Of a stretch of DNA of 64,000 nt, positions 22,294 to 40,639 are shown piece by piece. Source of the stretch: a virus; IMG/VR virus record IMGVR_UViG_3300036719_006047, positions 32,001-96,000 of that record; one strand, given 5' to 3'. The stretch's first letter is position 1, and each line of letters begins with the position of its first letter. The position numbers and the translations under genes were made by a program. The notes under the pieces were generated by a model that did not search any database, was not told where the DNA came from, and worked only from the letters and a program-made list of their open reading frames with translations.

Positions 22294-22489
22294 TCAATAC
22301 TTTGAGACTCGATTCACGTTGTACAGAGCGTCTTCTCGCTTTAGGCTAATACTTCTTCTATTTTCTGCCTTTCGAGCTAAATCTCTTTGGCCGAAGGGGC
22401 TATAAGGTTGAGTTTGTTCTATCTGAATCGCTTCCTTGCACTATTTTTAGTGAGCTACAAGCTCGCCTGCGAGGGTCAGACATGCTCAT
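22294..22489 (-). pseudogene. decayed copy of the array gene
   Basis: 8 nt after the stop of H: ATG AGC ATG TCT GAC CCT CGC (MSMSDPR), then after a frameshift ELVAH*K*CKEA, matching LAHAKACxxA; no repeats. Confidence 0.7.
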
Positions 22490-22497
22490 GCATCAGC

Positions 22498-23121: not shown

Positions 23122-23129
23122 GATTCACC

Positions 23130-23675
23130 TCAGTACTTGAAGATGGGAGTTTTGATGTGAAGTTTGCCGTCAGAACGAAGTTCAACGACAAGTCTTTTTT
23201 TGGCTTCAGTAAGCCCGCTGCTGGGTTCGTGAAGCAAAATGAATTTTTTAGCTGCTGCCACTGGGTAACCATTGTATGCTACATTTATATTGGACGAAGA
23301 TTCAATTTGGTCTTGCGTAATCTTCGCGTCGGTCAAGTCAGCAAAACCGATGTAGGCTTTGGTCAAGTTGGCGTCGGTGAGGTTGGCTCCTGTAAGATCG
23401 GAGTCGTTGAGGCTGGCGCGAGTGAGGTTGGCGCCGGTCAGGTTAGCGTTAATGAGGTTGGTTTTGCCGAAGATGGCACCGGTGAGGTTGGCGCCCGTGA
23501 GATCGACGCCCTCGAGATCGGTGTCACCGAGGCTGGCGTTCGTGAGGTCGATGCCAGAAAGATCTTTGAGCTCATGAGGCAGAGGAGGTCTGCTCTTTTT
23601 AAACCACTTAGCTTCTTTGCAAGCCCTTGCGTGAGCGAGGATAGCGACAACGCGGGGGTCGGACATGTTGGCCAC
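23130..23675 (-). CDS. array pentapeptide-repeat protein I (181 aa, ~16 repeats)
   Basis: Shared caps; GTG start. Confidence 0.95.
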   Translation of the reverse strand: MANMSDPRVVAILAHARACKEAKWFKKSRPPLPHELKDLSGIDLTNASLGDTDLEGVDLTGANLTGAIFGKTNLINANLTGANLTRASLNDSDLTGANLTDANLTKAYIGFADLTDAKITQDQIESSSNINVAYNGYPVAAAKKFILLHEPSSGLTEAKKRLVVELRSDGKLHIKTPIFKY

Positions 23676-23683
23676 GGTTCACC

Positions 23684-24544
23684 TCAGTACTTGAAGATGG
23701 GAGTTTTGATGTGAAGTTTGCCGTCAGAACGAAGTTCAACGACAAGTCTTTTTTTTACTTGGCGCTGCAAGCTATGACTTTTCTGTTGCAGCAAAATAAC
23801 TTTTTTTGCTATTTCTTTCGGGTAACCATCTTCTGCGACATCTGTGTGTTCAATAAAGTTCAGTTGGGCCTGAGTGACCTTAGCGTTAGTCAAATCTGCG
23901 AATCCCAAATCAGCGTAGTTGAGGTCGGCTCCCGTCAGATCAGCACCTGTGAGGTTAGCGCGGCTGAGCTTGGCGATGCTGAGGTCGGCACCAGTAAGGT
24001 CAGCCCCTTCTAAGTTAGCGCTTTTGATGTCGGCTCCGGTGAGGGCGGCGCCGTTGAGGTTGGCACGATTTAAGTTGGCACGGTTCAACTCGGAGTAGCT
24101 TAGCGTGGCTGAGCGGAGGGAAGCGCCGCTGAGATCAGCTCTGCTAAAATTGGCGTTGAGGCATTTGGCTGACTCAAGTTCTGCGTTGTTTAATTTGGCG
24201 TCGACAAGTTTGACTTCTTGAAGATTGGCGTCGGTGAGGTCGGCACCAGTGAGGTCTGCGCCCGTGAGATCCGCGGAATACAGTTGGGCGCCCGACAGCT
24301 TGGCACCCCTAAGGTCGGCGCCAGTTAGGTTGACTGCAGAGAGATTTGCACGCTCAAGCTTGGCGCCACTTAAGTTGGCTCCGGCAAAGTTGACGCCGAT
24401 GAGGCTGAGGCTGCTGAGGTCTATTCCAGATAATTCTTTAAGGTTTTCGGGGAATGGCGGTATGGTTTTTCCTGCGTTTTCGGCTTGGTAATGAGCCTTT
24501 ACGTAATCGAGCACGCGAGGGACACGGGGATCAGACATGTCCAT
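23684..24544 (-). CDS. array pentapeptide-repeat protein J (286 aa)
   Basis: Shared caps; more degenerate codons. Confidence 0.95.
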   Translation of the reverse strand: MDMSDPRVPRVLDYVKAHYQAENAGKTIPPFPENLKELSGIDLSSLSLIGVNFAGANLSGAKLERANLSAVNLTGADLRGAKLSGAQLYSADLTGADLTGADLTDANLQEVKLVDAKLNNAELESAKCLNANFSRADLSGASLRSATLSYSELNRANLNRANLNGAALTGADIKSANLEGADLTGADLSIAKLSRANLTGADLTGADLNYADLGFADLTNAKVTQAQLNFIEHTDVAEDGYPKEIAKKVILLQQKSHSLQRQVKKRLVVELRSDGKLHIKTPIFKY

Positions 24545-24552
24545 GAATCACC

Positions 24553-25299
24553 TCAATACTTGAAGATGGGAGTCTTGATGTAAAGTTTGCCGTCTGCACG
24601 CAGTTCAACGACAAGTCTCTTTTTAACTTGTTGCCTCGATCTTCTGAGTTCTGGATTGTGGAATAAAATAACTTTTTCGGCTACTTCTTTTGGGTAACCG
24701 TCTTGTGCTACATCAGTGTAAAGTGCGCTGTCTAGCTGGGCCTTAGTGATGTTCGCGTTGGTTAAGTCAGCAAAACCGATGTTGGCGGCGATGAGGTTGG
24801 CGGCGTTGAGGTTGGCGGCGGTGAGGTTGGCGTCGACAAGCTTGGCGTCGGTGAGGGTGGCGTGGGTGAGGTCGGCGCTGCTGAGGTCGGCGCGGCTGAG
24901 GATGGCGCTGCCGAGGTAGGCGCGGAGGAGCTTGGCGTCAGTGAGGTTTGCGTGGCTGAGGTCGGCGTTGGTGAGCTTGGTGTCAGTGAGGTCGGCGCGG
25001 CTGAGGTCGGCACCGTTTAACTTTGAGAAGTAGAGCTCGGCGGCGCTTAGGTCGGCACCTTCGAAGTTGGCGCGGGTGAGGTTGGCGCGGATGAAGTAGG
25101 CGCTACTGAGATTGGCACCGGTAAAGTCGGCACCTTCGAGGTTGGCGTCACTGAGGTTGGCACTGCTGAGGTCGATGCCAGACAAATCTAGGAGATTAGA
25201 AGCTAAGACTGGTCCGTCTTCTCTTCTATTTTTAGCTTCTTTGCAAGCCCTTGCGTGAGCGAGGACAAGAGGAACGCGGGGGTCAGACATATCGGCCAC
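24553..25299 (-). CDS. array pentapeptide-repeat protein K (248 aa)
   Basis: Shared caps. Confidence 0.95.
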   Translation of the reverse strand: MADMSDPRVPLVLAHARACKEAKNRREDGPVLASNLLDLSGIDLSSANLSDANLEGADFTGANLSSAYFIRANLTRANFEGADLSAAELYFSKLNGADLSRADLTDTKLTNADLSHANLTDAKLLRAYLGSAILSRADLSSADLTHATLTDAKLVDANLTAANLNAANLIAANIGFADLTNANITKAQLDSALYTDVAQDGYPKEVAEKVILFHNPELRRSRQQVKKRLVVELRADGKLYIKTPIFKY

Positions 25300-25307
25300 A
25301 GATCACC

Positions 25308-26069
25308 TCAGTACTTGAAGACGGGAGTCTTGATGTGCAGTCTGCCGTCTGCTCGAAGCTCAACAACAAGTCTTTTTTTGGCTGTTCGTTTCCAGGACGC
25401 AGGCGCTGGTTCGTGGGGCAAAATAACTTTTTCAGCTACTTCTTTGGGGTAACCGTCTTGCGGTACATTGACATACCCTGCGCTATTCAATTGAATTTGA
25501 GTAATCTTCGCGTTGGTCAAGTCAGCGAAACCTAATTTGGCACTTTTGAGGTCGGCGCCTTCGAGGTTGGCGCCGGTGAGGTCGGCGTCGGTGAGGTCGG
25601 CGCCGCCGAGGTCGGCGTCGGTGAGGTCGGCGCCGGTGAGGTTGGCGCCGCTGAGCTCGGCGCGGAAGAGTCTGACGCGGGTGAGGTTGGCTCCGCTTAG
25701 GTCAGCGCCCTCGAGCTTGGCGCCGTCGAGATCGGCGCCGCTGAGGTCGGCGTTGGTGAGGTTGGCGCTGCTGAGGTCGGCGCCTTCGAGAACGGCGTCG
25801 GTGAGGTTAGCGTCGGTGAGGTTGGCGCCGATGAGCCAGGCGCTGATGAGCTTGGCGCTGATGAGCTTGGCGTCGGTGAGGTTAGCGTCGGTGAGGTTAG
25901 CGTCGGTGAGGTCGGCTTCTTCGAGATTGGCGCCGGAGAGGTTGATGCCAGAAAGATCTTTGAGTTTATGAGGCAGAGGAGGTCTGCTCTTTCCCCCCGA
26001 CTTAGCTTCTCGACAAGCCTCTGCGTGAGCGAGGATAGCGATAACGCGGGGGTCGGACATATCGGCCAC
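25308..26069 (-). CDS. array pentapeptide-repeat protein L (253 aa, ~30 repeats)
   Basis: Shared caps. Confidence 0.95.
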   Translation of the reverse strand: MADMSDPRVIAILAHAEACREAKSGGKSRPPLPHKLKDLSGINLSGANLEEADLTDANLTDANLTDAKLISAKLISAWLIGANLTDANLTDAVLEGADLSSANLTNADLSGADLDGAKLEGADLSGANLTRVRLFRAELSGANLTGADLTDADLGGADLTDADLTGANLEGADLKSAKLGFADLTNAKITQIQLNSAGYVNVPQDGYPKEVAEKVILPHEPAPASWKRTAKKRLVVELRADGRLHIKTPVFKY

Positions 26070-26077
26070 AGATCACC

Positions 26078-27046
26078 TCAGTACTTGAAGATGGGAGTCT
26101 TGATGTGCAGTCTGCCGTCTGCTCGCAGTTCAATGACAAGTCTCTTTTTGGCCTTTCGCTTGTGTGGTATAGGTTCTGGTTCGTGAAGCAAAATAACTTT
26201 TTCGGCTACTTTTTTAGGGTAACCGTCTTTTGCTACATCGACATAATTTGAGGCATTCAATTGATCTTGAGTAATCTTCGCGTTGGTCAAGTCAGCGAAA
26301 CCTATTTCGGCTCTTTTGAGGTCGGCGCCTTCGAGGTTGGCGCCGGTGAGGTTGGCGTTGGTGAGGTTGGCGCCGGTGAGGTTGGCGTCGCTGAGTTTGG
26401 TGCTGTGGAGGTTGGCACCGGTGAGGTTGGCGCCCCAGAGGTTGGCGCCGTTGAGGTCGGCGCCGGTGAGGATGGCGCCTCTGAGGTCGGCGCCGGTGAG
26501 GTTGGCACTGGTGAGGTCAGCGTTGGTGAGGTTGGCGCCGGTGAGGTTGGCGCCGACGAGGTTGGCGCCGGTGAAATTGGAGCCGATGAGCCAGGCGTCG
26601 CGGAGCTCGGCGCGGTTGAGGTTGGCGTAGTTGAGCTTGGCGCCGTTGAGCCTGGCGCCGGTGAGGTCGGCGCCCCCGAGGCGGGCATTCTCGAGGGCGG
26701 CGTCGGTGAGGTCGGCGCCGGTGAGGTTGGCGCCGCTGAGGTTGGCGCCTCTGAGGACGGCGCCGGTGAGGACGGCGCCGGTGAGGTTGGCGCCGTTGAG
26801 GTCGGCGCCGGTGAGGTTGGCGCGGGTGAGGTTGGCGCCGTTGAGGTCGGCGCCGGTGAGGATGGCGCCTCTGAGGTCGGCGCCCTCGAGCTTGTCGCCG
26901 TCGAAATCGGCGCCGGTGAAGTCTATGCCAGACAGATTTCTAAGATTAGAGGGTAAGACTGGAACGATTTCTCCCTGCTGCTTAGCTTTTTGGCAAGCCT
27001 TTGCGTGAGCGAGGACAGCGATAACGCGGGGGTCGGACATGTTCAT
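26078..27046 (-). CDS. array pentapeptide-repeat protein M (322 aa, ~44 repeats)
   Basis: Shared caps; longest member. Confidence 0.95.
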
Positions 27047-27054
27047 GATTCACC

Positions 27055-27855
27055 TCAATACTTGAAGATGGGAGTCTTGATGTAAAGTTTGCCGTCTGCT
27101 CGCAGTTCAACGACAAGTCTCTTTTTGGCTATTCGTTCCCAGGACGTAGGCGGTTCGTGAAGCAAAATAACTTTCTCGGCTACTTCTTTGAGGTAGCCCA
27201 AATCCGCAACATTGACATAATTTGAGTCATCCAATTGATCTTGAGTAATCTTCGCGTTGGTCAAGTCAGCGAAACCTATTTCGGCGCCGTTGAGGTCGGC
27301 GCCGGTGAGGTCGGCGTCGGTGAGGTCGGCGCCGGTGAGGTTGGCGCCGCTGAGCTCGGCGCGGAAGAGTCTGACGCGGGTGAGGTTGGCGCCGTTGAGG
27401 TCGGCGCCGGTGAGGTTGGCGCCGTTGAGGTCGGCGCCGGTGAGGATGGCGCCTCTGAGGTCGGCGCCGGTGAGGTTGGCACTGGTGAGGTCAGCGTTGG
27501 TGAGGTTGGCGTCTTTGAGGTTGGCGCTGTTGAGCTTGGCGCTGTTGAGGTTGGCGCGGGTGAGGTTGGCGCTGTAGAGCTTGGCGCCTCTGAGGTCGGC
27601 GCTGAAGAGCCAGGCGCCGCTGAGGTTGGCGCCGTTGAGGTCGGCGCCGGTGAGGTCGATGCCGGTGAGCTTGGCGTCGGTGAGGTCGGCGCGGGTGAGG
27701 TTGGCGCCGGTGAGGTCGGCGCCGGTGAGGTCGATGCGATAAATATCTTTGAGAATATGCGGCAGAGAAGGTCTGCTTCTTTTCTGCCGATTAGCTTCTC
27801 GACAAGCCTCTGCGTGAGCGAGGACAAGAGGAACGCGGGGGTCGGACGTGCCCAT
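27055..27855 (-). CDS. array pentapeptide-repeat protein N (266 aa, ~33 repeats)
   Basis: Shared caps. Confidence 0.95.
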
Positions 27856-27863
27856 GAATCACC

Positions 27864-28406
27864 TCAGTACTTGAAGATGCGATTTTTGATGTGAAGCTTG
27901 CCGTCCGCTCGCAGCTCAACAACAAGTCTTTTTTTGGCAACACGGTTCCAATCGACAGTTTCGTGAAACAAAATAACTTTTTCGGCCACTTCCTTAGGGT
28001 AACCCTGATATTCTACATCACGGTAAAATGCTTCTTCCAGCTGGGCCTGAGTGACCCTCGCGTTGGTTAAGTCAGCAAAACCTATTTTGGCGCGGTTGAG
28101 GTTGGCGCCGTTGAGCTTGGCGCCGTTGAGGTCGGCGTCTTCGAGGTAGGCGCCTCTGAGGTTGGCGCCCGTGAGGTCGGCGCCGATGAGGTCGGAGCCG
28201 CGGAGGTTAGCGTCGGTGAGGTCGGCGTTGGTGAGGTTGGCGCCGGCGAGGTCAGCGTCTTCGAGATTGGCGCCGGAGAGGTCGATGCCAGAAAGATCTT
28301 TGAGCTCATGAGGCAGAGGAGGTCTGCTCTCTTCCCCCCAAAAAGCTTCTCGACAAGCCTCTGCATGCGCGAGGATAGCGACAACGCGGGGGTCGGACGT
28401 GTCCAT
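27864..28406 (-). CDS. array pentapeptide-repeat protein O (180 aa, ~16 repeats)
   Basis: Shared caps. Confidence 0.95.
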   Translation of the reverse strand: MDTSDPRVVAILAHAEACREAFWGEESRPPLPHELKDLSGIDLSGANLEDADLAGANLTNADLTDANLRGSDLIGADLTGANLRGAYLEDADLNGAKLNGANLNRAKIGFADLTNARVTQAQLEEAFYRDVEYQGYPKEVAEKVILFHETVDWNRVAKKRLVVELRADGKLHIKNRIFKY

Positions 28407-28414
28407 GAATCACC

Positions 28415-29137
28415 TCAGTACTTGAAGATGGGAGTTTTGATGTGAAGCTTTCCGTCTGCGCGCAATTCGACGACAAGTCTCTTTTTGGCAACACGGTTCT
28501 TGGACACAGGTTCTTTCGCGTGAAGCAAAATAACTTTTTCGGCTACTTCTTTGGGGTAACCGTTTTGTGCAACATCGACATACCATCCTCTATCCAATTG
28601 AGCTTTAGTAATCTTCGCGTTGGTCAAGTCGGCAAAACCTAAGTTAGCTTCACCTCCTGAGTAGAGTTCACCTAAGTAGACGCCGGTGAAGTCGGCGTCG
28701 GTGAGATTGGCGCCGGTGAGGTCGGCGTAGCTGAGGTTGGCGCGGTTGAGGTTGGCGCCAGTGAGGTTGGCGCCGTGGAATCTGGCGGCGCTGCCGAGCT
28801 TGACGTCGGTGAGGTCGGCTCCGGTGAGGTCGGCGCTGTCGAAGTAGGCGCTGCTGAGGTCGGCGCCGGTCAAGTTGGCGTCGGTGAGGTTGGCGCCTCT
28901 GAGGTCGGAATTGCCGAAGTAGGCGCCTCTGAGGTCGGCGCTGCTGAGGTCGGCGCCGGTGAGGTTGGCGTCGGTGAGCAAGGCTTCGATGAGCCGGGCG
29001 CCGGAGAGGTCGATGCCAGACAGATATCTAAGATTATAGGGCAAGCGTGAAGAGAGTCTTCCCTGCTGCGTAGCTTGTAGACAAGCCTCTGCGTGAGCGA
29101 GGACAGCGATAACGCGGGGGTCGGACATGTTGGCCAC
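28415..29137 (-). CDS. array pentapeptide-repeat protein P (240 aa, first in transcription order)
   Basis: Shared caps; two out-of-register inserts. Confidence 0.95.
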   Translation of the reverse strand: MANMSDPRVIAVLAHAEACLQATQQGRLSSRLPYNLRYLSGIDLSGARLIEALLTDANLTGADLSSADLRGAYFGNSDLRGANLTDANLTGADLSSAYFDSADLTGADLTDVKLGSAARFHGANLTGANLNRANLSYADLTGANLTDADFTGVYLGELYSGGEANLGFADLTNAKITKAQLDRGWYVDVAQNGYPKEVAEKVILLHAKEPVSKNRVAKKRLVVELRADGKLHIKTPIFKY

Positions 29138-30653: not shown

Positions 30654-31332
30654 GAGGCAGCAGCCACTTCAGATTGACGGGCTTGAGCGAGCCCGGCTTT
30701 GTCGGAACAAGTGGCGTGTAAATCTCTTTTTCCGGTGTGGGCTGCGCCCACTCTCGAAGGGTCTGGATCGCTTGCTTGGGCAAGATGATCCAGGCCTTTG
30801 AGCCATTGGCTTCAGGCGTTTCGTAACGGTCTTTGTTTTCGTTGTAGATGACATGCCCCCACGTCCTTGTCTTCAGGCTCTTTGCTTCGAGACCAGACAA
30901 GATGCAGTCCGCGATGGCGTCTACGACTTCGACAGGCACCTGAGGGATGTCCACGATGTTCTCCACGGGCTTGGGAGGTCTTCCGAGGGGCAGGACAGGG
31001 AGATCGGGCAACTGCTTTTCGTAAAGCTCAAGCATGTACCGAGAGTAAGCTCGGTAAGCAGAACGAGTTTTGGGGTGCAGAAGGATGACTCCTTTCACTT
31101 GCTCCTCGTCCTCGAAGGTAGTTGAGTTCAAAGCTCTTTCGAGGCAATTGATGTGAGACAAGTAGACTTTGATCGAGTTGTCCTTCATCTGCATCTCTTT
31201 CTTGAGCCATTCTTTGAACTGCATGGTCACTCCGTTAACTGGTTTACGGGATAACAGAACTCGTTTACCCTGTGTCGCGCTGGTAGTCAAATCACCTGGA
31301 ATAGAAAGACATAGGTACTTCTCCTTATGCAT
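30616..31332 (-). CDS. hypothetical protein resembling a truncated or inactive tyrosine-recombinase fold
   Basis: FKEWL..NSIKVYLSHI is core-binding-like; ILSGLEAKSLKTRTWGHV parallels LxxTGLRxxELxxLxWxDI but lacks the Arg; no HxxR or catalytic Tyr region. Confidence 0.45.
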   Translation of the reverse strand: MHKEKYLCLSIPGDLTTSATQGKRVLLSRKPVNGVTMQFKEWLKKEMQMKDNSIKVYLSHINCLERALNSTTFEDEEQVKGVILLHPKTRSAYRAYSRYMLELYEKQLPDLPVLPLGRPPKPVENIVDIPQVPVEVVDAIADCILSGLEAKSLKTRTWGHVIYNENKDRYETPEANGSKAWIILPKQAIQTLREWAQPTPEKEIYTPLVPTKPGSLKPVNLKWLLPLIEVRMSTRGKS

Positions 31333-31428
31333 GTCTATTCCAGACTTGTCTCTCTGATTTCAGACAGCGTGCGCAAACGATAACGTACTTCTGTTATCCA
31401 GTTATTCAGTTAACTACGCCCGGCGCAA

Positions 31429-31730
31429 GCATCGCGTCGCGTCACGTGCGTGTCGTGCGTGTCGTGCGTGTCGTGCGTGTCGCACGTGTCGTGCGTGTCG
31501 CACGTGTCGTGCGCGTCACGCGTGTCGCACGTGTCGCACGTGACGTGGGAGTCGTACGTGTCGCACGTGACGTAGGGACCGTACGTGTCGCACGTGACGC
31601 ACGTGTCGCACGTGACGTACGTCCACTCCGTACGGCGCGCACGTTACGTACCCGCTCCGTACGGCGCGCACGTAACGTGCATGCACGTACGCCCACCGTA
31701 CGTCCGCACGGACGTGCGCATGTGTACGTG
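31429..31730. repeat. non-coding CpG-dense tract of 9-bp units CGTG(T/A)CG(TG/CA)
   Basis: cgtgtcgtg / cgtgtcgca / cgtgacgca arrays with many CACGTG and TACGTA palindromes, located at the strand switch. Confidence 0.92.
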
Positions 31731-31932
31731 ATAGAAAGGGCCGGAGTTAATCCAAAGAAGGCCAAAAAAATTTTGTTAGACCAAAGAGAGGGTCGATAGG
31801 AACCTTACTGTTTCCGACGGTTTCTGTCGATACCCTCAGTCTCTCAGGGATCGTGGTTGATTCCCGAGAGCGAGGGGTTTGTCCCCCACGGGAGCGTGTT
31901 GTATCGCTCCCTCACATGCCCTTGGAGGCACC

Positions 31933-32712
31933 ATGTCCGCTGTTCTCCCCGCGCAGGCCTTCGTCGAGACCTCCACCATCACCGTCCCCGTGGACGGCCG
32001 CCAGCGGGTGTTCTTCGGCCACACGGCCGAGGACACGACCCAGTACCTCTGGGTGTTCAAGGCGGGGGGCGCCATCGAGGCGTTCCCCGGGCGCGACCCG
32101 AAGTCGCTGCCCTCGGTCGAGGGGGTCGAGGGCCGCATCCTCGTCCCCCTCACGACGGACAACTTCGGGGTCCAGCCCGGGGCGCGCGGCTCCACGCTCG
32201 TGGCCACCGAGGCGGCCCGCGGCCGCCGCCGCGACGAGCTGCGCGGCCTCGGCACCCCCGCCCCCGCGCCCGCCCCCGCCCCCGTGACCGGCACCCCCGC
32301 CGCGGGGCTCGCCTTCGGGGTGCCCCGCGCCCCCACCGCCGCCTCCACGAAGGTCGCCGCGCCGCCCCCGGCGCCCCCGGCGGTCAAGCCCGACGACCCC
32401 CGCGCCGTCGGGCTCTACAAGGGCACGCTGACGATCTCCGCGGCCATCGAGGGGCTCACGTCCGCGGAAATCGTGGCCCTCACGGCCGCGGTGAGGGCGC
32501 TCAAGGAGCGCCACGCGGCCGAGGAGGCGGCGATGGCCGCCGCCGTGGACGGGCTGAAGCAGCTCATGGGCGAGATCCCCGGCGTCGTGACGCCCGTCGC
32601 GCCGTCCGCCCCCGTGGCTCCGTCCGCCTACGACGACGCCACCGCTGACGCCGACGCCGACGACGACATCGGCCTCGACGACGACGAGGCCCCCGTCGCC
32701 GGCGTGGGGTAG
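31933..32712 (+). CDS. hypothetical protein (GC-rich, Pro/Ala-rich)
   Basis: GGAGG SD, ATG at 31933; G/C third positions. Confidence 0.85.
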   Translation: MSAVLPAQAFVETSTITVPVDGRQRVFFGHTAEDTTQYLWVFKAGGAIEAFPGRDPKSLPSVEGVEGRILVPLTTDNFGVQPGARGSTLVATEAARGRRRDELRGLGTPAPAPAPAPVTGTPAAGLAFGVPRAPTAASTKVAAPPPAPPAVKPDDPRAVGLYKGTLTISAAIEGLTSAEIVALTAAVRALKERHAAEEAAMAAAVDGLKQLMGEIPGVVTPVAPSAPVAPSAYDDATADADADDDIGLDDDEAPVAGVG

Positions 32713-32718
32713 CCCCCA

Positions 32719-32752
32719 GGCAGGGGTGAGGGTTTAGGCCCTCGCCCCTGCC
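32719..32752 (+). terminator. 14-bp GC hairpin after ORF (terminator-like, no U tract)
   Basis: GGCAGGGGTGAGGG-TTTAGG-CCCTCGCCCCTGCC. Confidence 0.5.
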
Positions 32753-32768
32753 CGGTCCGTGACCGTCA

Positions 32769-32936
32769 CGGGCCCGTGCTGACTTCACGCGAGATCGCGT
32801 GAGGTCATCTCGGCCTCGTGGCCGTGCGCTCAAGCTCGTGGTGAGCGAGAGCACAACCCAGCGGAGTGTCTACGCGCCCGCGGACACTTCGCATCACGTA
32901 CGTCACGTACGTGTTTGAGCGGGCATAGGAGCTACC
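32769..32936 (+). repeat. palindromic leader repeat, copy 1 (168 bp)
   Basis: Near-identical to 33297-33455 and 33860-34017; ends in ATAGGAGCTACC-ATG. Confidence 0.95.
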
Positions 32937-33284
32937 ATGACCTACACCGAAACCCTCGCGGAAAAGGCGGTTGAGGGCCTGGGCATCGGCTTTGGCGGGA
33001 CCTCGCAAGTCTCGCCCGACGTGCTCGGGCAGGCCCTCGCGGGCCAGATCAACAACGGGGGATGGGCGCTCATCGCGCCCGTCTCCCACTGGCAGGACGT
33101 CCTCTTCCGCGCGTGGGAGGGGGATGGGGATTACTGGGAGGACGACGATCGTGAGGCGGCGAAGGCCGCATTCGTGGCGGGGTTCGAGGCTACAATCCTC
33201 GCGCTGGGCCTCAGCCTCGAAGAAGTGTACGCGGCGCAACCGCCGCCTCCGGCCGAGCCCCCTCAGCCTGGGGATCATTGGTAG
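32937..33284 (+). CDS. hypothetical protein (cassette 1)
   Basis: AGGAG SD supplied by the repeat. Confidence 0.8.
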   Translation: MTYTETLAEKAVEGLGIGFGGTSQVSPDVLGQALAGQINNGGWALIAPVSHWQDVLFRAWEGDGDYWEDDDREAAKAAFVAGFEATILALGLSLEEVYAAQPPPPAEPPQPGDHW

Positions 33285-33296
33285 GCGAGGGGCCTG

Positions 33297-33455
33297 CGGG
33301 CCCGTGCTGACTTCACGCGAGATCGCGTGAGGTCATCTCGGCCTCGTGGCCGTGCGCTCAAGCTCGTGGTGAGCGAGAGCACAACCGGAAGAAGTGTCTT
33401 TGCGCCCGCGGACACTTCGCATCACGTACGTGCTTGAGCGGGCATAGGAGCTACC
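33297..33455 (+). repeat. palindromic leader repeat, copy 2 (159 bp)
   Basis: As copy 1 minus one 9-bp CACGTACGT unit. Confidence 0.95.
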
Positions 33456-33836
33456 ATGACCGACAAGCCACATCTGTGGCTGGTGGATCCAGCCATCACA
33501 GAGGAGGACCCGTGCGACGAGTCCTCTGAAGAGTCGGAGGAGGACTACGAGCAAGCAAACGAGCTTGCTCGGGGCATTTTCATGCACCTCACGGGTGCCC
33601 TGGGGCACGCCAAGTACGTGTCTCTGTCCCTGCTGGGTCGGGCAGTCGCGACTCGCGTGCTGCTGGGGGAGCAGCTTGCTCCTCGTCTCCTCGCGTTCGC
33701 GTGCGCGTTGAGGTGGCTGGAAGCCCGGCACGGGGAAAGCCCCGTCTCGGACGAGGACTACGCGTTCGCGTCCGACACATGTCGGGCGGCAATGGTCGTG
33801 TTCCTCGCGGAGCACGACGTCACCTCCAGAAGTTAG
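33456..33836 (+). CDS. hypothetical protein (cassette 2)
   Basis: SD supplied by the repeat. Confidence 0.8.
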   Translation: MTDKPHLWLVDPAITEEDPCDESSEESEEDYEQANELARGIFMHLTGALGHAKYVSLSLLGRAVATRVLLGEQLAPRLLAFACALRWLEARHGESPVSDEDYAFASDTCRAAMVVFLAEHDVTSRS

Positions 33837-33843
33837 GCCAGGG

Positions 33844-34017
33844 GGCCACGAGGCCGAGATGACTTCACGCGATCTCGCGTGAGGTCGTCTCGGCCTCGTC
33901 GCCGTGAGCTCAAGCTCGTGGTGAGCGAGAGCACAACCGGAAGAAGTGTCTACGCGCCCGCGGACACTTCGCATCACGTACGTCACGTACGTGTTTGAGC
34001 GGGCATAGGAGCTACAC
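33844..34017 (+). repeat. palindromic leader repeat, copy 3, with extended 25-bp hairpin
   Basis: Hairpin 33848-33899. Confidence 0.95.
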
Positions 34018-34932
34018 ATGACCGCGCTTTACACTGACCCCTACGCAGACCCCTACTCGTTCGCCAAGGCCGCCGGCTGGGAGGGGCAGATTGTGCCCTT
34101 CCCGGGCGAGGACCACTTCCGCACCGTCACGGTGCGGGACGAGACCGTGACGGTCCTCGTCGCTCTCGGGCTCGGGGGCTACTACGCCCCCGTGAACGAC
34201 AAGGGGCAGATCCTCGTCCGGCCCCCCCAGGTGGGGGACCTGCTCCACTACCTCCCCGACATCCTGGGCTGGATGGGCCAGCCCACCAAGCTGCGCCCGG
34301 AGGCGCTGCTGACCCCCGGCTGGGCCAAGACCTGGCCCGGCAAGTACACGGACCAGAACCTTCGGGAGGTCGAGGAGCGGCGGGCCGCCCGTGAGGCGAA
34401 GGCGGTGAAGCCGACCTCCGCGGCGTCGGCCCCCGCCGCCCCGTCCCCGGCCCAGGTCGGTCCGGTGAAGGCGAAGGTGAGCTTCGGCTCGCCGTCGCCT
34501 TCCTCCTCGTCGCCCGCGCTCGACAGCGACTCCGGGCCGTTCTCGGTCGAGGGAACCATCGACATGCACGACACCGGCGTCGTGCAGCCCTCGGTCGAGG
34601 CCACCGCGCCGCCGGCGCCCGCCGCCCCCGTGAAGGCGAAGGTGAGCTTCGGCTCGCCGTCGCCCTCCCCCTCGCCCTCCTCCCCGGCCGCCCCTCCTGT
34701 CCTCGACCCCATCGTGGACGAGAGCGGGCTGTGGTTCCTGCGCCGCGCGGAGATCACCTGGGACCAGTGGTTCCAGGAGGTCGTCGCCTTCGCGGAAGGC
34801 GAAGGCAACCCGTCGCTGATCGCGCACGGGCTCGCCGCGGGCCTGCCGCTCGTGCGGCCGACCGACCCGAACCGGGTCGATTTCCGCAAGAGCAAGTTCA
34901 CCGCCCCGCTCGGGCGGCCCCCGGGCTCGTAG
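34018..34932 (+). CDS. hypothetical Pro/Ala/Ser-rich protein (cassette 3)
   Basis: 304 aa; internal 35-bp duplicate (34465-34499 = 34630-34664, VKAKVSFGSPSP). Confidence 0.85.
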   Translation: MTALYTDPYADPYSFAKAAGWEGQIVPFPGEDHFRTVTVRDETVTVLVALGLGGYYAPVNDKGQILVRPPQVGDLLHYLPDILGWMGQPTKLRPEALLTPGWAKTWPGKYTDQNLREVEERRAAREAKAVKPTSAASAPAAPSPAQVGPVKAKVSFGSPSPSSSSPALDSDSGPFSVEGTIDMHDTGVVQPSVEATAPPAPAAPVKAKVSFGSPSPSPSPSSPAAPPVLDPIVDESGLWFLRRAEITWDQWFQEVVAFAEGEGNPSLIAHGLAAGLPLVRPTDPNRVDFRKSKFTAPLGRPPGS

Positions 34933-34969
34933 TGACCTTGCCGACTGTCAATGCTTGAGCGATCGAGCA

Positions 34970-34998
34970 TTGACAGTTGGCACAGCCCGCGATACCCT
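34970..34998 (+). promoter_or_regulatory. sigma70-type promoter for the tRNA cluster
   Basis: TTGACA-17 nt-TACCCT, 12 nt before tRNA-Arg. Confidence 0.7.
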
Positions 34999-35010
34999 GC
35001 GGGTACTTGA

Positions 35011-35084
<74 letters not shown>

Positions 35085-35096
35085 CTTCTTTGACAT

Positions 35097-35167
35097 TGGG
35101 GCGTAGTGTAATGGTAGCACAAGGGGTTTTGGCCCCCTTGGTCCGGGTTCGAGCCCTGGCGCCCCAG
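35097..35167 (+). tRNA. tRNA-Gln(TTG)
   Basis: TGGGGCG/CGCCCCA; AGGGG-TTTTGGC-CCCCT. Confidence 0.93.
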
Positions 35168-35171
35168 TTTT

Positions 35172-35390
35172 CGTTGGTGCTCCAACGCCCCGTGTGCGCG
35201 GGGCTCCCCTTCGCGGGAAAAGGTGCTTGCTAACCACGCACACGGCGGCAAGAAGCTGGGCGGTCGCTGTCGGTCCGTTTCCAGGGTGGACGCCGTAACA
35301 CTGTCCCACGGTAGCGTGTGGGGCGGATCACGTGCGAACGAGGTCGCACGACGTTTGCCAGCCTTCCTCGTCCTTGCTGAAAAAGGCTGG
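35172..35390 (+). ncRNA. candidate structured RNA 1
   Basis: Serial hairpins with loop-loop complementarity ACGAGG/CCTCGT. Confidence 0.45.
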
Positions 35391-35395
35391 AATTT

Positions 35396-35479
35396 GCGAG
35401 AGTGGTGGAATAGGTAGACGCGCCGGACTCAAAATCCGGTGACCGGAAGGTCGTGCGGGTTCGATTCCCGCCTCTCGCA
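35396..35479 (+). tRNA. tRNA-Leu(CAA)
   Basis: GCGAGAG/CTCTCGC; CCGGA-CTCAAAA-TCCGG; long variable arm. Confidence 0.97.
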
Positions 35480-35483
35480 CTTC

Positions 35484-35556
35484 GCTGGCGTAGCTCAACT
35501 GGCAGAGCAGCGGTTTTGTAAACCGCAGGTTATCGGTTCAAGTCCGTTCGCCAGCT
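35484..35556 (+). tRNA. tRNA-Thr(TGT)
   Basis: GCTGGCG/CGCCAGC; GCGGT-TTTGTAA-ACCGC. Confidence 0.97.
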
Positions 35557-35563
35557 TCTTTTC

Positions 35564-35636
35564 GGGGACGTAGCTCAGTTGGGAGAGCACCTGCTTTGCA
35601 CGCAGGGGGTCACGGGTTCGAGTCCCGTCGTCTCCA
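35564..35636 (+). tRNA. tRNA-Ala(TGC)
   Basis: G3:U70 pair present; CCTGC-TTTGCAC-GCAGG. Confidence 0.97.
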
Positions 35637-35644
35637 TTTTGTTT

Positions 35645-35764
35645 GGCCCTCGCGGTGAGGGTAGGGCAGCGTAGCTCATGAAAGGCTTGACCATCGCCAT
35701 CTCCGTGGTTGGTCAGAAGCCCCTCCGAAGCCCTATCCGTTTGACCGTGAGCCCCGCGAGGGCC
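35645..35764 (+). ncRNA. candidate structured RNA 2 (120 nt)
   Basis: Perfect 11-bp closing stem GGCCCTCGCGG/CCGCGAGGGCC with nested stems. Confidence 0.6.
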
Positions 35765-35768
35765 TTTT

Positions 35769-35843
35769 GCCGACATAGCTCAGTGGTAGAGCAGGCGGCT
35801 GTTAACCGCCTTGTCGCAGGTTCGATCCCTGCTGTCGGCGCCA
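35769..35843 (+). tRNA. tRNA-Asn(GTT), CCA encoded
   Basis: GCCGACA/TGTCGGC; GGCGG-CTGTTAA-CCGCC. Confidence 0.96.
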
Positions 35844-35848
35844 CTTCA

Positions 35849-35922
35849 GGGGCGGTAGCTCAGTCGGTCAGAGCACCCGGCTCATACCCGGTATGTCGTG
35901 GGTTCGAGCCCCACCCGCCCTA
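35849..35922 (+). tRNA. tRNA-Met(CAT), probably elongator (Ile2 not excluded)
   Basis: CTCATAC loop; GGGGCGG/CCGCCCT. Confidence 0.88.
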
Positions 35923-35928
35923 CAGTTT

Positions 35929-36012
35929 GCGAGAATGGTGGAACCGGTAGACGCGCTGGATTTAAAATCTGGTGACCGCAAGGTCGTGCGGGTTCGAGCC
36001 CCGCTTCTCGCA
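35929..36012 (+). tRNA. tRNA-Leu(TAA)
   Basis: GCGAGAA/TTCTCGC; TTTAAAA loop; long variable arm. Confidence 0.93.
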
Positions 36013-36019
36013 CACATTC

Positions 36020-36092
<73 letters not shown>

Positions 36093-36119
36093 CACTTTAT
36101 TCGAGGCCAAGGAGGCCGC

Positions 36120-38238: not shown

Positions 38239-38456
38239 ACTACCTGTTGTCTCTCCCGGCATTGCCGAGTTGGGTTCAATTCTACTGCGTGGGCGTCATT
38301 ATCACTGGGCGCCACACGGCGGTGAGGCGGGTGCTGAACAACCTGTCTCCCGCAGATCGTCGGGTCGTGCTCGCAGTCATCGAAGACTGCGTGAAACGTG
38401 ATCTCAACAAGGTTCCCTGTGTCGAGGGAGACTTCTTGCCTGCGGAGTGCAACTGA
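38235..38456 (+). CDS. small hypothetical membrane protein
   Basis: Overlap-coupled at both ends. Confidence 0.6.
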   Translation: MNYLLSLPALPSWVQFYCVGVIITGRHTAVRRVLNNLSPADRRVVLAVIEDCVKRDLNKVPCVEGDFLPAECN

Positions 38457-40639
38457 TGAAACAGATTGTCGAGAGAGGCGATGTGGAGCTCCTCGCCGGC
38501 GGTGTCGCGGCTGTGGGAGCCTACAAGATTTCTGACCGAGAGGAGGATGTTGCTCTGCTGTCGGTCCTCTTGCGGCAGAAGCTTTACCTTGACCCCACGT
38601 GGGCCGCTGTCCGGGAGGTCGTCAGCAACGCGATCGACGCGCACGAAGCTGTCGGTCAGACGAAGAAAGTCAACATCCACTTCCCGACTTCGATGGACCC
38701 GACGTTCCGCGTGCGGGACTACGGGCCTGGTCTGTCGGAAGAAGATGTTCTCGGGCTGTACTTGACGTTCGGGTCCAGCACGAAGCGCAATTCCGATTCC
38801 CAGATCGGCGGCCTTGGCCTCGGCTGCAAAGCTCCGCTCGCTTACGCGGAGAGCATGTCTGTCGAAAGCCACCACGGCGGCGTCAAGAAGACCTACATGT
38901 TTTTCCGTGATCTGGGTGCGGCCGGCCAAGCCCACAAGGTCGCGGAGGAGCCCACGACAGAGACTGGCATCGAGGTCTCTTTTGCCGTCAAGCTCGCGGA
39001 CACGCATCTGTTGCAGACTTACGCCGCCAGGATGTTCCTGTGGCACGACCAGCTTCAGAGTAACGTGGAGATTCCCTCAGTGCCGGAGTCTTCGCGTAGA
39101 GGGGATTACATCGTGTTGCCGAATGACATGCTGCGCAGCACAGGCAGCTCGCTGCACGTTGCAATGGGCGGCATCATCTACCCGCTGCTGAGCGACAAGC
39201 TGATGGGCGGCTACGATTCGACTGAAGACGAGAGGGCCAAGTTAGAGCGAGTGCTCCGATTCTTGAATCACTTCAATCAGAAGTTGGTTCTTCTGCGGTC
39301 GGTGGGGTTTTGCCCAGTCTCTCCTTCTCGGGAGAACTTGGAGTACACCAAGAAGAGCACCATTGCGCTGCTCCGCTCGCTGGTAGAGTCCACGTCCGGC
39401 ATCTACGCCAAGACGCGAAAAGACTTCGTAAGCATGCCGTTTTGGCAGCAGCTCGCGATAAGTTATTTGTGCGGCAACAACCGCTCTTATGACGGAATGG
39501 GAACGCTCTCGTACATCCAGATGACGCACAAGGCGTCGTATCTCTTGGTCGACCCACAGCTCAGAATTGAGCTCAACGACAAGAAAAACGAACTTGTCCA
39601 GCTACTGGAAGCGTCGCTGAAGAAGCACAAGCTCACGCTGAAAGTTCTCGATTGGGAGAAGAAAGCCAAAGCTGTACCAGCGGAACGGATCTTCGTGGGT
39701 CCTTCTCGTCATCGTTCAGCGAGAAACCTGTTGAATGACGAGCCACCCACGCTCGTGTTGTGCGACAAACGCAACTACATTGAGCGCGGGTTCGGTCCGG
39801 GTTCCCTTCTTGTGGTTGCCAGCTCAGGGACTATCGCTGACACGGCGAAGGTTTTGGCTCTTTTCGCAGCGGAGCTGTCAGCTAAGCTCAAAGAGTTTGA
39901 GTTTCCTGCGTTTGAGTTTGTATACTGCTCGTCGCAGAAGCCTCCCGATAGGCAGAGATCGGCCACCAAGGCTCTGCGCCGCAAAAAGGGTTTTGTGTAC
40001 TACTGCAACACCATGAAGCTCTTTCGCGACGAGAACTACAAGGACTGCGACCGGTACGTGGCCGAGGACGACGACACCATCCCTTACGTGGTGGTGAACG
40101 AAACAACCGGAAAGTCTTACACAGGGGGCCTTCCTTCTGTCGAAGCGCTCGGATCTGTCATGCGGGCAGTGAATGAACCTTTTCCTGAAGTAGTGCGTGT
40201 ATTCTTCTCGGCCGAGACTCCCACGGGTCTGTCCTTGTTCGAGTTGTACAACAGGATGGGGGCAAAAGCCATTGCGAACAACTGGGATTTAGTTGTCAGG
40301 GAGGTGAAGCGCGTCGCCTACACGCCTACCACCAGAGACTTTGACGTTGTTGAATGTGTCAGTAAAGCATGTGGTTTGCCTCCTGACATGGAAGCTGTTG
40401 CGAACAACTACACCATTCCCCGATTGACTGGATCCATGAGCAGCGTCATGATCCAGCTTGACTACCACTCAAAGTGGATCACGCCTGATATGCACAAGGA
40501 ACTTGAGGCTGTCCGCGCGGAAGCAAGAAAGGCCATTGAGGCCATGCACAACAAGTACGCTTTGCTGTTTTTGGGTTTTTCCCACCATGATTCCAAGTCT
40601 GATCTGGAAAGTTACATCTCCCACCGCAACGAGGTCTGA
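38456..40639 (+). CDS. rIIA: rIIA-like protein (GHKL ATPase N-terminus)
   Basis: REVVSNAIDAH, RDYGPGL, GSSTKR..IGGLGLGCKAP; adjacent to rIIB. Confidence 0.85.
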   Translation: MKQIVERGDVELLAGGVAAVGAYKISDREEDVALLSVLLRQKLYLDPTWAAVREVVSNAIDAHEAVGQTKKVNIHFPTSMDPTFRVRDYGPGLSEEDVLGLYLTFGSSTKRNSDSQIGGLGLGCKAPLAYAESMSVESHHGGVKKTYMFFRDLGAAGQAHKVAEEPTTETGIEVSFAVKLADTHLLQTYAARMFLWHDQLQSNVEIPSVPESSRRGDYIVLPNDMLRSTGSSLHVAMGGIIYPLLSDKLMGGYDSTEDERAKLERVLRFLNHFNQKLVLLRSVGFCPVSPSRENLEYTKKSTIALLRSLVESTSGIYAKTRKDFVSMPFWQQLAISYLCGNNRSYDGMGTLSYIQMTHKASYLLVDPQLRIELNDKKNELVQLLEASLKKHKLTLKVLDWEKKAKAVPAERIFVGPSRHRSARNLLNDEPPTLVLCDKRNYIERGFGPGSLLVVASSGTIADTAKVLALFAAELSAKLKEFEFPAFEFVYCSSQKPPDRQRSATKALRRKKGFVYYCNTMKLFRDENYKDCDRYVAEDDDTIPYVVVNETTGKSYTGGLPSVEALGSVMRAVNEPFPEVVRVFFSAETPTGLSLFELYNRMGAKAIANNWDLVVREVKRVAYTPTTRDFDVVECVSKACGLPPDMEAVANNYTIPRLTGSMSSVMIQLDYHSKWITPDMHKELEAVRAEARKAIEAMHNKYALLFLGFSHHDSKSDLESYISHRNEV

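Follow-up and report, generated by a model that had tools for sequence, protein, structure and literature searches.

Three genes of an uncultured freshwater phage each start behind nearly the same long, structured leader, and the question raised by this locus is what the shared leader does. We analyzed a stretch of 64,000 nucleotides (the window) of the phage's virus record, which is 136,910 bp in total and 85% complete. Three direct repeats of 169 nt each lie at window positions 32767-32935, 33295-33463 and 33847-34015, and alignment bore out the claim of the first-pass annotation that the leaders are near-identical through the SD to ATGACC; the identity begins at the TAG stop of the upstream gene. 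Compared without gaps, copies 2 and 3 are 80% and 92% identical to leader copy 1, the lower figure being due to a 9-bp indel, and a gapped alignment of all three leaders gives a mean column identity of 85% with long invariant runs. On the + strand there are exactly three occurrences of the hairpin core GACTTCACGCGA-NN-TCGCGTGAGGTC and exactly three of the block TTGAGCGGGCATAGGAGCTAC, where shuffled sequences give an expectation of 0.00. The features of the locus are as follows.

31445-31622, + strand: 9-bp unit repeated in tandem about 20 times (CGTGTCGCA / CGTGTCGTG / CGTGACGTA), in the divergent intergenic region that precedes the gene island
31933-32712, + strand: P0004 frame, the gene that opens the GC-rich island; GGAGG precedes its probable ATG (31933); GC3 0.95
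32719-32752, + strand: extra hairpin with a 14-bp stem between the P0004 stop and leader 1, outside the repeat (read from the sequence)
32765-32822, + strand: leader 1 module i, extended hairpin; core 32781-32806, four mismatches in the outer stem
32826-32936, + strand: leader 1 module ii, multi-stem, closed by GCTCAAGC/GTTTGAGC; covariance model 144.6 bits
32937-33284, + strand: gene A (P0001, 115 aa), acidic ORFan predicted to be all helix; ATGACC start, TAG end
33293-33350, + strand: leader 2 module i, hairpin; core 33309-33334
33354-33455, + strand: leader 2 module ii; SD 33446-33450; covariance model 131.1 bits
33456-33836, + strand: gene B (P0002, 126 aa), lineage-restricted ORFan with an acidic N-terminus
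33844-33903, + strand: leader 3 module i, hairpin with nearly perfect pairing over about 27-28 bp; core 33861-33886; -56.5 kcal/mol
33906-34017, + strand: leader 3 module ii; SD 34007-34011; covariance model 138.8 bits
34018-34932, + strand: gene C (P0003, 304 aa), Pro/Ala/Ser-rich, with internal repeat module PVKAKVSFGSPSPS
34940-34981, + strand: long imperfect palindrome after gene C and before the tRNA cluster, at the end of the array; no T-run (read from the sequence)

Each leader consists of two modules: (i) a hairpin of 12-28 bp directly 3' of the upstream TAG stop, i.e. in the position of a terminator, and (ii) a folded leader that ends in the ribosome site. Module ii is a multi-stem element of about 100 nt, closed by GCTCAAGC/G(T/C)TTGAGC and followed by the invariant GGGCATAGGAGCTAC(A)C-ATG; its predicted stems include the closing helix and the GAAGTGTC stem. 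In leader 1 it holds a GGAGTGTC/GACACTTC stem and two TCACGTACG units with the palindrome CACGTACGTG, and ends in GGGCATAGGAGCTACC with the SD at 32927-32931. Leader 2 has one TCACGTACG unit, through a 9-bp deletion, and a closing pair that is G-C rather than G-U. Leader 3 carries a 1-nt insertion (CTACACATG) before the ATG, and its hairpin, which matches itself on the opposite strand in BLAST, has the loop dinucleotide TC rather than GA. The perfect 10-bp palindrome CACGTACGTG has four sites in 137 kb: one in each leader, about 33 bp before the ATG, and one, extended to 16 bp, in another intergenic region. The unit CGTGACGTA is common to the leaders and the 9-bp array, on opposite strands; the array is the genome's most ACGT-dense stretch (21-24 ACGT per 500 bp versus a mean of 1.5).

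The leader array adjoins a tRNA cluster, whose first tRNA starts at 35011, and an rIIA homolog. P0004 has no leader copy upstream, and its TAG stop precedes leader 1; all four genes of the island (P0004, A, B and C) stop at TAG, and the island is compositionally foreign (GC 65-74% versus about 54%). The three genes behind the leaders had been called unrelated. No sequence similarity among them is detectable (blastp E ≥ 4.5), but an hhalign match of 38 columns between A and B (E 0.0028, probability 11%) leaves room for a very old paralogy of these two, so that the claim stands for detectable similarity and not for ultimate origin. A and B are also alike in size (115 and 126 aa), GC3 (0.81 and 0.77), acidity and predicted four-helix layout; their AlphaFold models are of low confidence (pLDDT 59.5 and 49.9), too poor for fold searches. 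Gene B matches one other representative, a fragment, among 1.84 billion representative proteins. Gene C has a GC3 of 0.95 and homologs at 67-98% identity, and its strain variants differ in the number of PVKAKVSFGSPSPS modules and in the residues right after MTAL; a search of the ESM Atlas with C gave no usable match. P0004 is without match in Pfam and PHROG, and hhalign gives it a probability of 0.3% against C.

A search for further copies of the leader, one of the checks proposed at first, found none in the 136,910-bp record (BLAST at word size 7 and a covariance-model search), and a metagenome scan produced a single relative, the contig L006. The covariance model, run over the phage genome, L006 and two distant phage loci, recovered only the six known copies. 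The hairpin core, the central invariant 21-mer and the SD block were all absent from IMG/VR as exact matches, a phage database search gave no match, and the SD block was absent from 185,579 reference genomes, among which one Ktedonobacterales MAG matched the hairpin core by chance, with no other similarity. No Rfam family reached its gathering threshold on the leaders, the tRNAs being the sole real matches; sub-threshold matches of miRNA models to the leader 3 hairpin scored 30.3 bits against a gathering score of 64. Searches via the proteins and via rIIA as an anchor gave no related loci. Other metagenome contigs listed as encoding the proteins number 35 for P0001, 41 for P0002 and at least 19 for P0003, some of them 12-15 kb long. 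DUF3987 as an anchor gave hundreds of homologs at 57-69% identity, and in IMG/VR two loci at 31% identity, without repeats or tRNAs.

L006 is a 1.7-kb contig from a diverged relative in which A, B and C stand in equal order behind a matching leader. Orthologous copies of module ii are 96.6% identical between the window and L006 (258/267), versus 83.6% (194/232) at silent sites, counted as the third positions of those codons in B and C whose residue is unchanged (Fisher p = 7.6e-7). Gene A and its L006 counterpart A' share 55% nucleotide and 42% amino-acid identity, with 57 of 58 positions identical in the leader of A, and AGGAG and ATG are invariant in all six leader copies of the two genomes. 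Judged by this sequence comparison, the leader is better conserved than its genes and demonstrably under stronger constraint than they are. Before B', L006 has a canonical terminator (an 11-bp stem with 10 G-C pairs, and a T-run) in place of the hairpin, and this terminator abuts the first base of the closing helix of module ii. The swap demonstrates both the boundary between the modules and the terminator-equivalent position of module i; as a consequence of it, B' and C' would go untranscribed unless the terminator is leaky or module ii holds an unrecognised promoter.

Leaders 1, 2 and 3 had predicted fold energies of -88.3, -79.4 and -104.7 kcal/mol, with z-scores against shuffles of -4.2, -3.2 and -7.4, and the four inverted repeats named in the first-pass annotation are all present and all used in the predicted folds. 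Its remark that differences between copies often keep pairing through G-U also holds: a one-sided change keeps a standard pair (G-U, G-C or A-U on the + strand) in 11 of the 14 variable stem columns and breaks it in 3 (binomial p = 0.03 if half of such changes keep pairing). The covariation check proposed there found no double compensatory changes in any stem column, six copies from two genomes giving it almost no power. Within module ii, 5 of about 14 variable columns lie in stems, though 61% of columns are paired (manual count). The module i hairpins of all three window copies have energies of -38 to -57 kcal/mol, and in 4/4 copies the + strand folds 5.7-7.1 kcal/mol better than its complement (-39.7 versus -32.6 kcal/mol in leader 1), with 2-3 G-U pairs on the + strand and none on the - strand. 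Module ii shows little strand asymmetry (+0.6 to -4.0 kcal/mol), so that for this module a role at the DNA level, e.g. as an operator, is equally compatible. Taken with the retention of G-U pairs on the + strand and conservation above silent sites, the strand bias of the hairpins supports a role of the leader at the RNA level.

A consensus scan of window 31000-35500 and of L006 gave no promoter-like site, in agreement with the original statement that there is no canonical -35/-10. Inside the leaders there is no TANNNT except a TACCAT overlapping the ATG in two copies, no sigma-54 or ECF promoter motif conserved across the copies was seen by eye, and no promoter was recognised upstream of the gene island. 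The 85%-complete record also lacks a phage sigma factor and a single-subunit (T7-type) RNA polymerase. With no housekeeping promoter in the leaders and neither of these factors, a transcribed leader fits better than a promoter. Module i has no T-run, of the kind that ordinary terminators elsewhere in the phage have, so that termination by module i is doubtful. Two coding explanations were rejected: a leader peptide, as the frame of 36-39 codons is broken in two copies and all its differences between the genomes are non-synonymous, and stop-codon recoding (the leader frame is open behind 3 of 4 TAG stops), as the nine tRNAs include no suppressor.

We put the probability at about one half that the leader is an RNA-level, two-part cassette for intercistronic control and translation initiation. 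Such a unit would serve a small rightward operon of fast-evolving accessory ORFans mainly from within one + strand transcript. Module i would then be a stable RNA hairpin in the terminator position, directly after the upstream stop, that probably attenuates transcription, marks and shields a 3' end, or does both; alternatively, a host double-strand RNase may cut it and give each gene its own message. Cleavage of this RNase III type would need the host enzyme, as the phage encodes no RNase III gene. Long, similar hairpins are found after stop codons within one transcript, with no T-run, in the RNase III sites that separate early genes of T7 and the REP/BIME intergenic palindromes in operons of enterobacteria, where they process RNA, protect 3' ends and attenuate; module i resembles these in position and has no sequence similarity to them. 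In module ii, the domain closed by the long-range helix leads into the ribosome-binding block GGGCATAGGAGCTAC(A)C-ATG, invariant and predicted to be mostly unpaired, which may give the three genes an identical translation start region insulated from upstream sequence, and the CACGTACGTG palindrome or hairpin could be a common handle for a trans-acting regulator. We propose more tentatively, and regard as rather doubtful, that module ii is an undescribed phage cis-regulatory RNA domain, i.e. a portable expression adaptor to whose CACGTACGTG hairpin a factor of the phage or the host would bind, setting the translation and stability of any ORF that follows, with the hairpin cutting the transcript into equally expressed single-gene messages and the repeats doubling as seams for the exchange of orphan genes.

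The PeSLs of T4-type phages, to which the first-pass annotation had likened the leader, fit it well in architecture. In both, an intergenic unit of at least about 100 bp recurs, with a stem-loop in the terminator position and a block ending in SD and start codon, in both it flanks small ORFans in a variable region of a large phage (here by the tRNA cluster and rIIA), and in both the direct repeats are substrates for recombination without a dedicated recombinase. PeSLs have a strong sigma-70 consensus early promoter (-35, -10) and an AT-rich upstream region (PMC2839356, PMC4122927), whereas the leaders have no -10/-35, and their conserved part is a GC-rich multi-stem element of about 100 nt that looks transcribed. 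The leaders further differ from PeSLs in number (three copies versus dozens), in having no sequence similarity to them and in that the ORFan order is the same in the one readable relative. It is possible, if unlikely, that the leader is nevertheless a true terminator-promoter cassette acting at the DNA level, in which module i terminates, module ii is a non-canonical promoter with an operator (CACGTACGTG and the 9-bp units), used by an activator or by host polymerase that the phage has modified, and each gene is its own transcription unit. The canonical terminator before module ii in L006, behind which the downstream genes seem to need their own start, argues for this reading, as do the rarity of CACGTACGTG outside the leaders (4 times in 137 kb, 3 in leaders), the presence of CGTGACGTA both in the leaders and in the roughly 20-unit upstream array, as if a single DNA-binding protein served the two, an architecture equal to that of PeSLs, ending in SD and start codon (PMC2839356), and the weak strand bias of module ii folding. 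It is opposed by the leaders' lack of TATAAT, of TANNNT (bar the site overlapping the ATG) and of any -35/-10 pair, by the missing sigma factor and T7-type polymerase, by about 110 nt of roughly 97% conservation, which far exceeds what a promoter and operator need, and by the pairing kept through changes in the stems.

Relationships among the leader copies bear on their origin. The L006 copies are 98-100% identical to one another and 94-98% identical to the window copies, and an A/G difference between the genomes is fixed in all leader copies of each. A 1-nt insertion is common to non-orthologous copies (before C in the window, before A' in L006), and the third hairpin of L006 matches its positional ortholog at 47/63 positions but window hairpin 2 at 55/63. 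These patterns point to gene conversion or concerted evolution. They would also suit a relic of tandem duplication, in which a gene was copied together with its upstream region, after which the coding sequences diverged past recognition while gene conversion kept the non-coding ones alike, with no capture of genes and with the leader an ordinary intergenic region. The similarity of A and B in size, composition, acidity and predicted four-helix layout, their weak 38-column match, the fast evolution of the genes (42% identity between A and A') and the identical gene order in L006 are all in keeping with such a history. Gene C, however, differs in length, composition and sequence and has no similarity to A, B or P0004, and a shared helix count weighs little in models with pLDDT 59.5 and 49.9. 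The excess conservation of module ii (p = 7.6e-7) also still needs selection, i.e. a function of the leader, because gene conversion does not slow the rate of divergence between lineages. We consider a duplication relic improbable. In the cassette that we favor, purifying selection would keep the unit and gene conversion would homogenise its copies. As a by-product, 170-bp direct repeats may act as substrates for homologous recombination, by which the genes between them could be deleted, duplicated or swapped. A single contig of exactly 1378 bp is listed for a partial A protein and likewise for a full C protein; too short for B, it may have C right behind A and be a possible hint of a strain without this middle gene.

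The proposals that the leader is an integron attC-like ssDNA recombination site, or more broadly a module that captures and reorders genes, fared less well. Like attC arrays, the locus has imperfect palindromes between small, promoterless-looking genes in a one-directional array, and a GTTRRRY-like heptamer at two junctions (GTTAGGC before leader 3, GGTAGGC before leader 2); the former fits GTTRRRY exactly, overlaps the stop before leader 3 and does so in the L006 ortholog too. One can also draw a MITE-like insertion with the inverted repeats CGCTCAAGC/GCTTGAGCG of 9-10 bp as its ends, as these repeats bound module ii, homology of L006 copy 2 begins exactly at the left one, and the GC content of the island looks foreign. 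Against either form of mobile element, a tyrosine recombinase (PF00589) is absent from the 136,910-bp record, where all control genomes were positive, and no RYYYAAC partner (i.e. no R''/R' core pair), attI-like site or Pc was seen by eye in the leaders. The leader unit includes the ribosome site and start codon of the next gene, and its homology always runs beyond the right inverted repeat. We saw no target-site duplication, and the three copies are clustered, with none dispersed in the genome, IMG/VR or the 185,579 reference genomes. The A-B-C order and content are unchanged in L006, the only readable relative, an outcome that the first-pass annotation had itself named as refuting its idea. 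What the sequences show instead is exchange among the leaders, including the swap of a hairpin for a terminator. We regard a mobile element as very unlikely.

Cas6 enzymes recognise repeated RNA hairpins, and the phage encodes an intact Cas6 of the Cmx6 type (TIGR02807, 103.6 bits versus a cut-off of 98.85) with no CRISPR array reported, but the idea that this orphan enzyme cuts a polycistronic RNA at the hairpins into single-gene messages is the least credible of all. In two Chloroflexota genomes, the repeat of the Cmx6-linked arrays is 36 nt long, with GTGCTCAACGCC at its start and TTGCA(C/T) at its end, and the leaders score 6 against it, no better than the genome background (mean 6.4, maximum 13-14). 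The Cas6 proteins of those arrays were matches to a profile of homologs that share only 37-44% identity with the phage Cas6, whose specificity may differ. The hairpin is also dispensable in one L006 copy.

A second known system resembles the ribosome-site end of the cassette. In Cluster K mycobacteriophages the SAS (GGGATAGGAGCCC) occurs 11-19 times per genome, and the ESAS, two imperfect inverted repeats of 17 bp separated by 4-13 bp, lies immediately upstream of it (PMC3203893); the function of both was still without experimental test as of 2025 (PMC12699233). As in SAS, the leaders have an asymmetric AGGAG block, longer than pairing with 16S rRNA, a few bases before the ATG, with the core ATAGGAGC identical (SAS GGGATAGGAGCCC; leader GGGCATAGGAGCTAC), they have imperfect inverted repeats upstream, and they precede a subset of non-structural genes of different families with long upstream gaps. 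However, the leaders have three mismatches to SAS in ungapped alignment (GGCATAGGAGCTA), where the published rule is at most two, 3-7 bp before the start, and matches with three mismatches occur in the window at chance frequency (16 versus 13.7 ± 3.5 expected). In place of ESAS there is a domain of about 96 nt closed by 9-10-bp inverted repeats, with internal stems and a separate 28-bp hairpin, and there are three copies, in a different phage lineage. The leader is analogous to the PeSLs of T4 and to SAS/ESAS but belongs to neither class.

Orphan genes that evolve fast are numerous in large phages and often serve counter-defence or host takeover. How such genes are expressed and turned over is only partly understood, with two described solutions: the promoter-based PeSL, and SAS/ESAS. 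The first-pass idea of a repeated, structured expression module before genes without detectable similarity is supported, and most likely the leader is a shared expression-control cassette like those of T4-type phages and not a new mobile element; the array does not represent a new kind of mobile genetic system. The locus is a small, clean case of such a cassette: a long non-coding unit made of two separable modules and apparently promoterless. The leader is a convenient test bed for an RNA-level 'standard leader', and would be a candidate for use as an insulating part where synthetic operons are built for moderately GC-rich hosts.

Each of three genes in a compositional island of the phage genome (65-74% GC at 32-35 kb, compared with ~51-61% in the flanks and 56% for the whole) is preceded by a ~170-bp non-coding leader. 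The source record is 136,910 bp long, and is classed by IMG/VR as linear and ~85% complete. The features of the region (window positions) are:

21821-29137, minus strand: run of pentapeptide-repeat paralogs (PF00805, E down to 1e-64) with constant 8-bp gaps between genes
Right of the pentapeptide-repeat array, left of the island: DUF3987 primase/helicase-like gene
Between the DUF3987-side replication-type genes and the island: divergent intergenic region with the ~20-unit 9-bp array
Within 31445-31735: the 9-bp tandem array, ~20 units of CGTGTCGCA / CGTGTCGTG / CGTGACGTA and super-periods of 18 and 27 bp
31607-31678: ACGT-rich imperfect repeats after the 9-bp array, 29-bp period
32767-32935, 33295-33463 and 33847-34015, plus strand: leaders 1, 2 and 3, three direct repeats of 169 nt, before genes A, B and C
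35011-36093: nine tRNA genes, right of the island
38447-40639: rIIA homolog, right of the island

Accessory-gene regions of such make-up are familiar from large lytic phages.

The first-pass annotation had described the same structured leader before three unrelated genes. The three 169-nt direct repeats, which extend to ATGACC, bear this out: long invariant runs are common to all three in the alignment, and there are exactly 3 occurrences each of the hairpin core and of the SD-proximal block (0.00 expected from shuffles). The conserved unit spans the upstream gene's TAG stop (TAGGC[C/G]AGGGG) through the next gene's ATGACC; TAG, which belongs to the repeated unit, ends all four island genes (32710, 33282, 33834 and 34930). 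The genome-wide search for further copies that the annotation called for, by sensitive BLAST and by a covariance model, brought up no fourth leader. The genes too are unrelated as far as is detectable: blastp revealed no similarity among A (115 aa), B (126 aa) and C (304 aa), all of which distribute GC over the codon positions as real genes do and lack a Pfam or PHROG match. Profile comparison of A with B gave a weak match (38 columns, probability 11%), which neither shows nor excludes that they are very old paralogs, and found no relationship between C and the leaderless upstream P0004, the first gene of the island. Even with 1.84 billion representative proteins to compare it with, B remains an ORFan. 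Gene C contains an internal direct repeat of 84 nt (34426-34674) encoding PVKAKVSFGSPSPS modules; strain variants of the C protein have one, two or three of these (247-249, 302-304 and 321-323 aa), and in natural populations the gene thus grows and shrinks; two alleles, YTDPYADPYSF and DLDIDPYAF, occur directly after MTAL.

The metagenome contig Ga0194116_10109740 (L006, 1743 bp) contains the SD block three times and encodes on its minus strand A', B' and C', with amino-acid identities of 42%, 78% and 72% to A, B and C, each behind the same leader. The leader had been proposed to capture and reorder genes; this contig, the sole relative read, instead keeps the same three genes in the same order (A'-B'-C'). 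A, B and C are also encoded on many metagenome contigs. Conservation of the leader far exceeds that of its genes: in module ii, the ~100-nt multi-stem element before the SD block and ATG, positional orthologs are identical at 258/267 positions (96.6%), compared with 83.6% of third codon positions at identical residues of B and C (Fisher p = 7.6e-7), and nucleotide identity between A and A' is down to 55%. As gene conversion among copies cannot alone reduce between-lineage divergence, this excess speaks for purifying selection acting on the non-coding unit. A partial A protein and a complete C protein each list a single 1378-bp contig, too short for B, which may represent a strain that lost B via leader 2/leader 3 recombination, or an assembly collapse.

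The leader consists of two modules. Before B' in L006 the big 5' hairpin (module i) is missing, and in its position is a canonical intrinsic terminator (11-bp stem with 10 G-C pairs, T-run) that stops a few bases short of CGCTCAAGC, the first strand of the module ii closing helix. Comparison of the copies shows that they exchange sequence with one another. L006 copies are 98-100% identical among themselves and 94-98% identical to window copies; one A/G difference is fixed within each genome across all its copies; the 1-nt insertion CTACACATG precedes C in the window but A' in L006; and the L006 hairpin before C' matches window hairpin 2 at 55/63 positions vs 47/63 for its own positional ortholog. 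In window leader 3 a substitution cluster made the mismatched outer stem a near-perfect 27-28-bp palindrome, as hairpin-templated correction of a quasi-palindrome would be expected to do.

Leaders 1, 2 and 3 fold more stably than shuffles (z = -4.2, -3.2 and -7.4), and the module ii consensus structure has four predicted elements:

Closing helix: GCGCUCAAGC pairs with G(U/C)UUGAGCG
Inner helix: formed by the ACGU-rich repeat
Stem: GAAGUGUC-(CGC...GCG)-GACACUUC, well supported
Weak hairpin: SD in the loop, GGCAU pairs with AUG.CC

The earlier observation that differences often keep pairing through G-U applies to 11/14 variable stem columns, in which a one-sided change, into or out of G-U, leaves a standard pair, and not to the other 3, which break (p = 0.03 against a 50% null); two-sided, compensatory changes are absent from the six copies of the two genomes. 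By manual count 5 of ~14 variable columns of module ii are paired, although 61% of its columns are. G-U pairs are present on the plus strand only, and in 4/4 copies the plus strand of module i folds more stably than the minus strand, by 5.7-7.1 kcal/mol, which favours a plus-strand RNA, at least for the hairpin, without amounting to proof with six copies from two genomes. The folding energy of module ii has little strand asymmetry.

The most likely reading, to which we give a probability of about one half, is that the leader is an RNA-level intercistronic cassette. The module i hairpin would attenuate, process or protect the upstream message, and the closed multi-stem domain with its invariant SD block would provide the same insulated translation start for each gene; module ii might also be a common regulator site. 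A common DNA- or RNA-binding regulator is plausible, because the perfect palindrome CACGTACGTG occurs 4 times in 137 kb, 3 of them in the leaders (~33 bp before ATG), and because the leader unit TCACGTACG (twice in leaders 1 and 3, once in leader 2) is the complement of the array unit CGTGACGTA. The fourth CACGTACGTG (whole-record positions 131030-131045; window ~99030, outside the window) lies in a perfect 16-bp palindrome, TCGCACGTACGTGCGA, just 3' of a canonical terminator (GGGGGCGCGTGCCCCC then T-run) between convergent genes. The stretch 31445-31735 is the genome's most ACGT-dense (21-24 per 500 bp vs a mean of 1.5), and its array could be iterons/an origin, or sites bound by the candidate leader-binding factor. 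In 137 kb there are 34 occurrences of the octamer GCTCAAGC or its complement (~5 expected, a rough estimate from base composition), spread over both strands and mostly inside coding sequence, which a codon or dipeptide effect (Leu-Lys) probably explains.

The main rival, possible though distinctly less probable, is a terminator-promoter cassette of the promoter-early stem-loop (PeSL) type with a non-canonical promoter, for which the true terminator ahead of module ii in L006 is the best argument. The leaders have no recognisable promoter: a consensus scan of the island and L006 found none, in agreement with the canonical -35/-10 having been reported missing, TANNNT is absent from the leaders apart from one overlapping ATG in two copies, and the ~85% complete record encodes no sigma factor or T7-type polymerase. 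That the repeats are a pure duplication relic is unlikely, since this leaves the leader's excess conservation unexplained. A mobile element or integron attC/ssDNA recombination site, as once suggested, is without support and very improbable: the ~85% complete record has no tyrosine recombinase, no paired core sites were seen in the leaders by eye and the next gene's ribosome site is inside the unit, while a MITE was rejected for want of dispersed copies and target duplication and because homology runs beyond the right inverted repeat. Least probable is a Cas6 substrate. The phage has a genuine, intact orphan Cas6 of Cmx6 type (TIGR02807, above the curated cut-off; whole-record 105320-105904, L007 1321-1905), whose closest homologs are 87-95% identical and on short contigs, the next being <=44%; nowhere in the phage genome did repeats from Cmx6-linked arrays of two Chloroflexota genomes find a match (the best scored 14 of 36), and on current evidence the leader-repeat resemblance is genome background, leaving this reading unsupported.

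The leaders match no known RNA family, and were rejected as a coding frame: two copies interrupt the open 36-39-codon frame, whose differences are all non-synonymous. After A, B and B' this frame stays in phase as far as a TGA, 18 nt upstream of the following ATG; none of the nine tRNA genes is a suppressor, so stop-codon readthrough was rejected and the in-phase frame judged a coincidence of GC-rich sequence.

The defining feature of PeSLs is a sigma-70 consensus promoter (PMC2839356, PMC4122927); the analogy drawn at first pass survives in architecture and genomic setting, but not in the promoter, which the leaders lack. The start-associated sequences (SAS/ESAS) of Cluster K mycobacteriophages, with a published rule of <=2 mismatches (PMC3203893) and a function still untested (PMC12699233), are similar in concept and share the identical core ATAGGAGC, but the leaders fail the 2-mismatch rule and a 3-mismatch match is at chance level. 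Without the PeSL promoter and outside the SAS mismatch rule, the leader belongs to neither family, and is most likely a repeated regulatory cassette before phage accessory genes.
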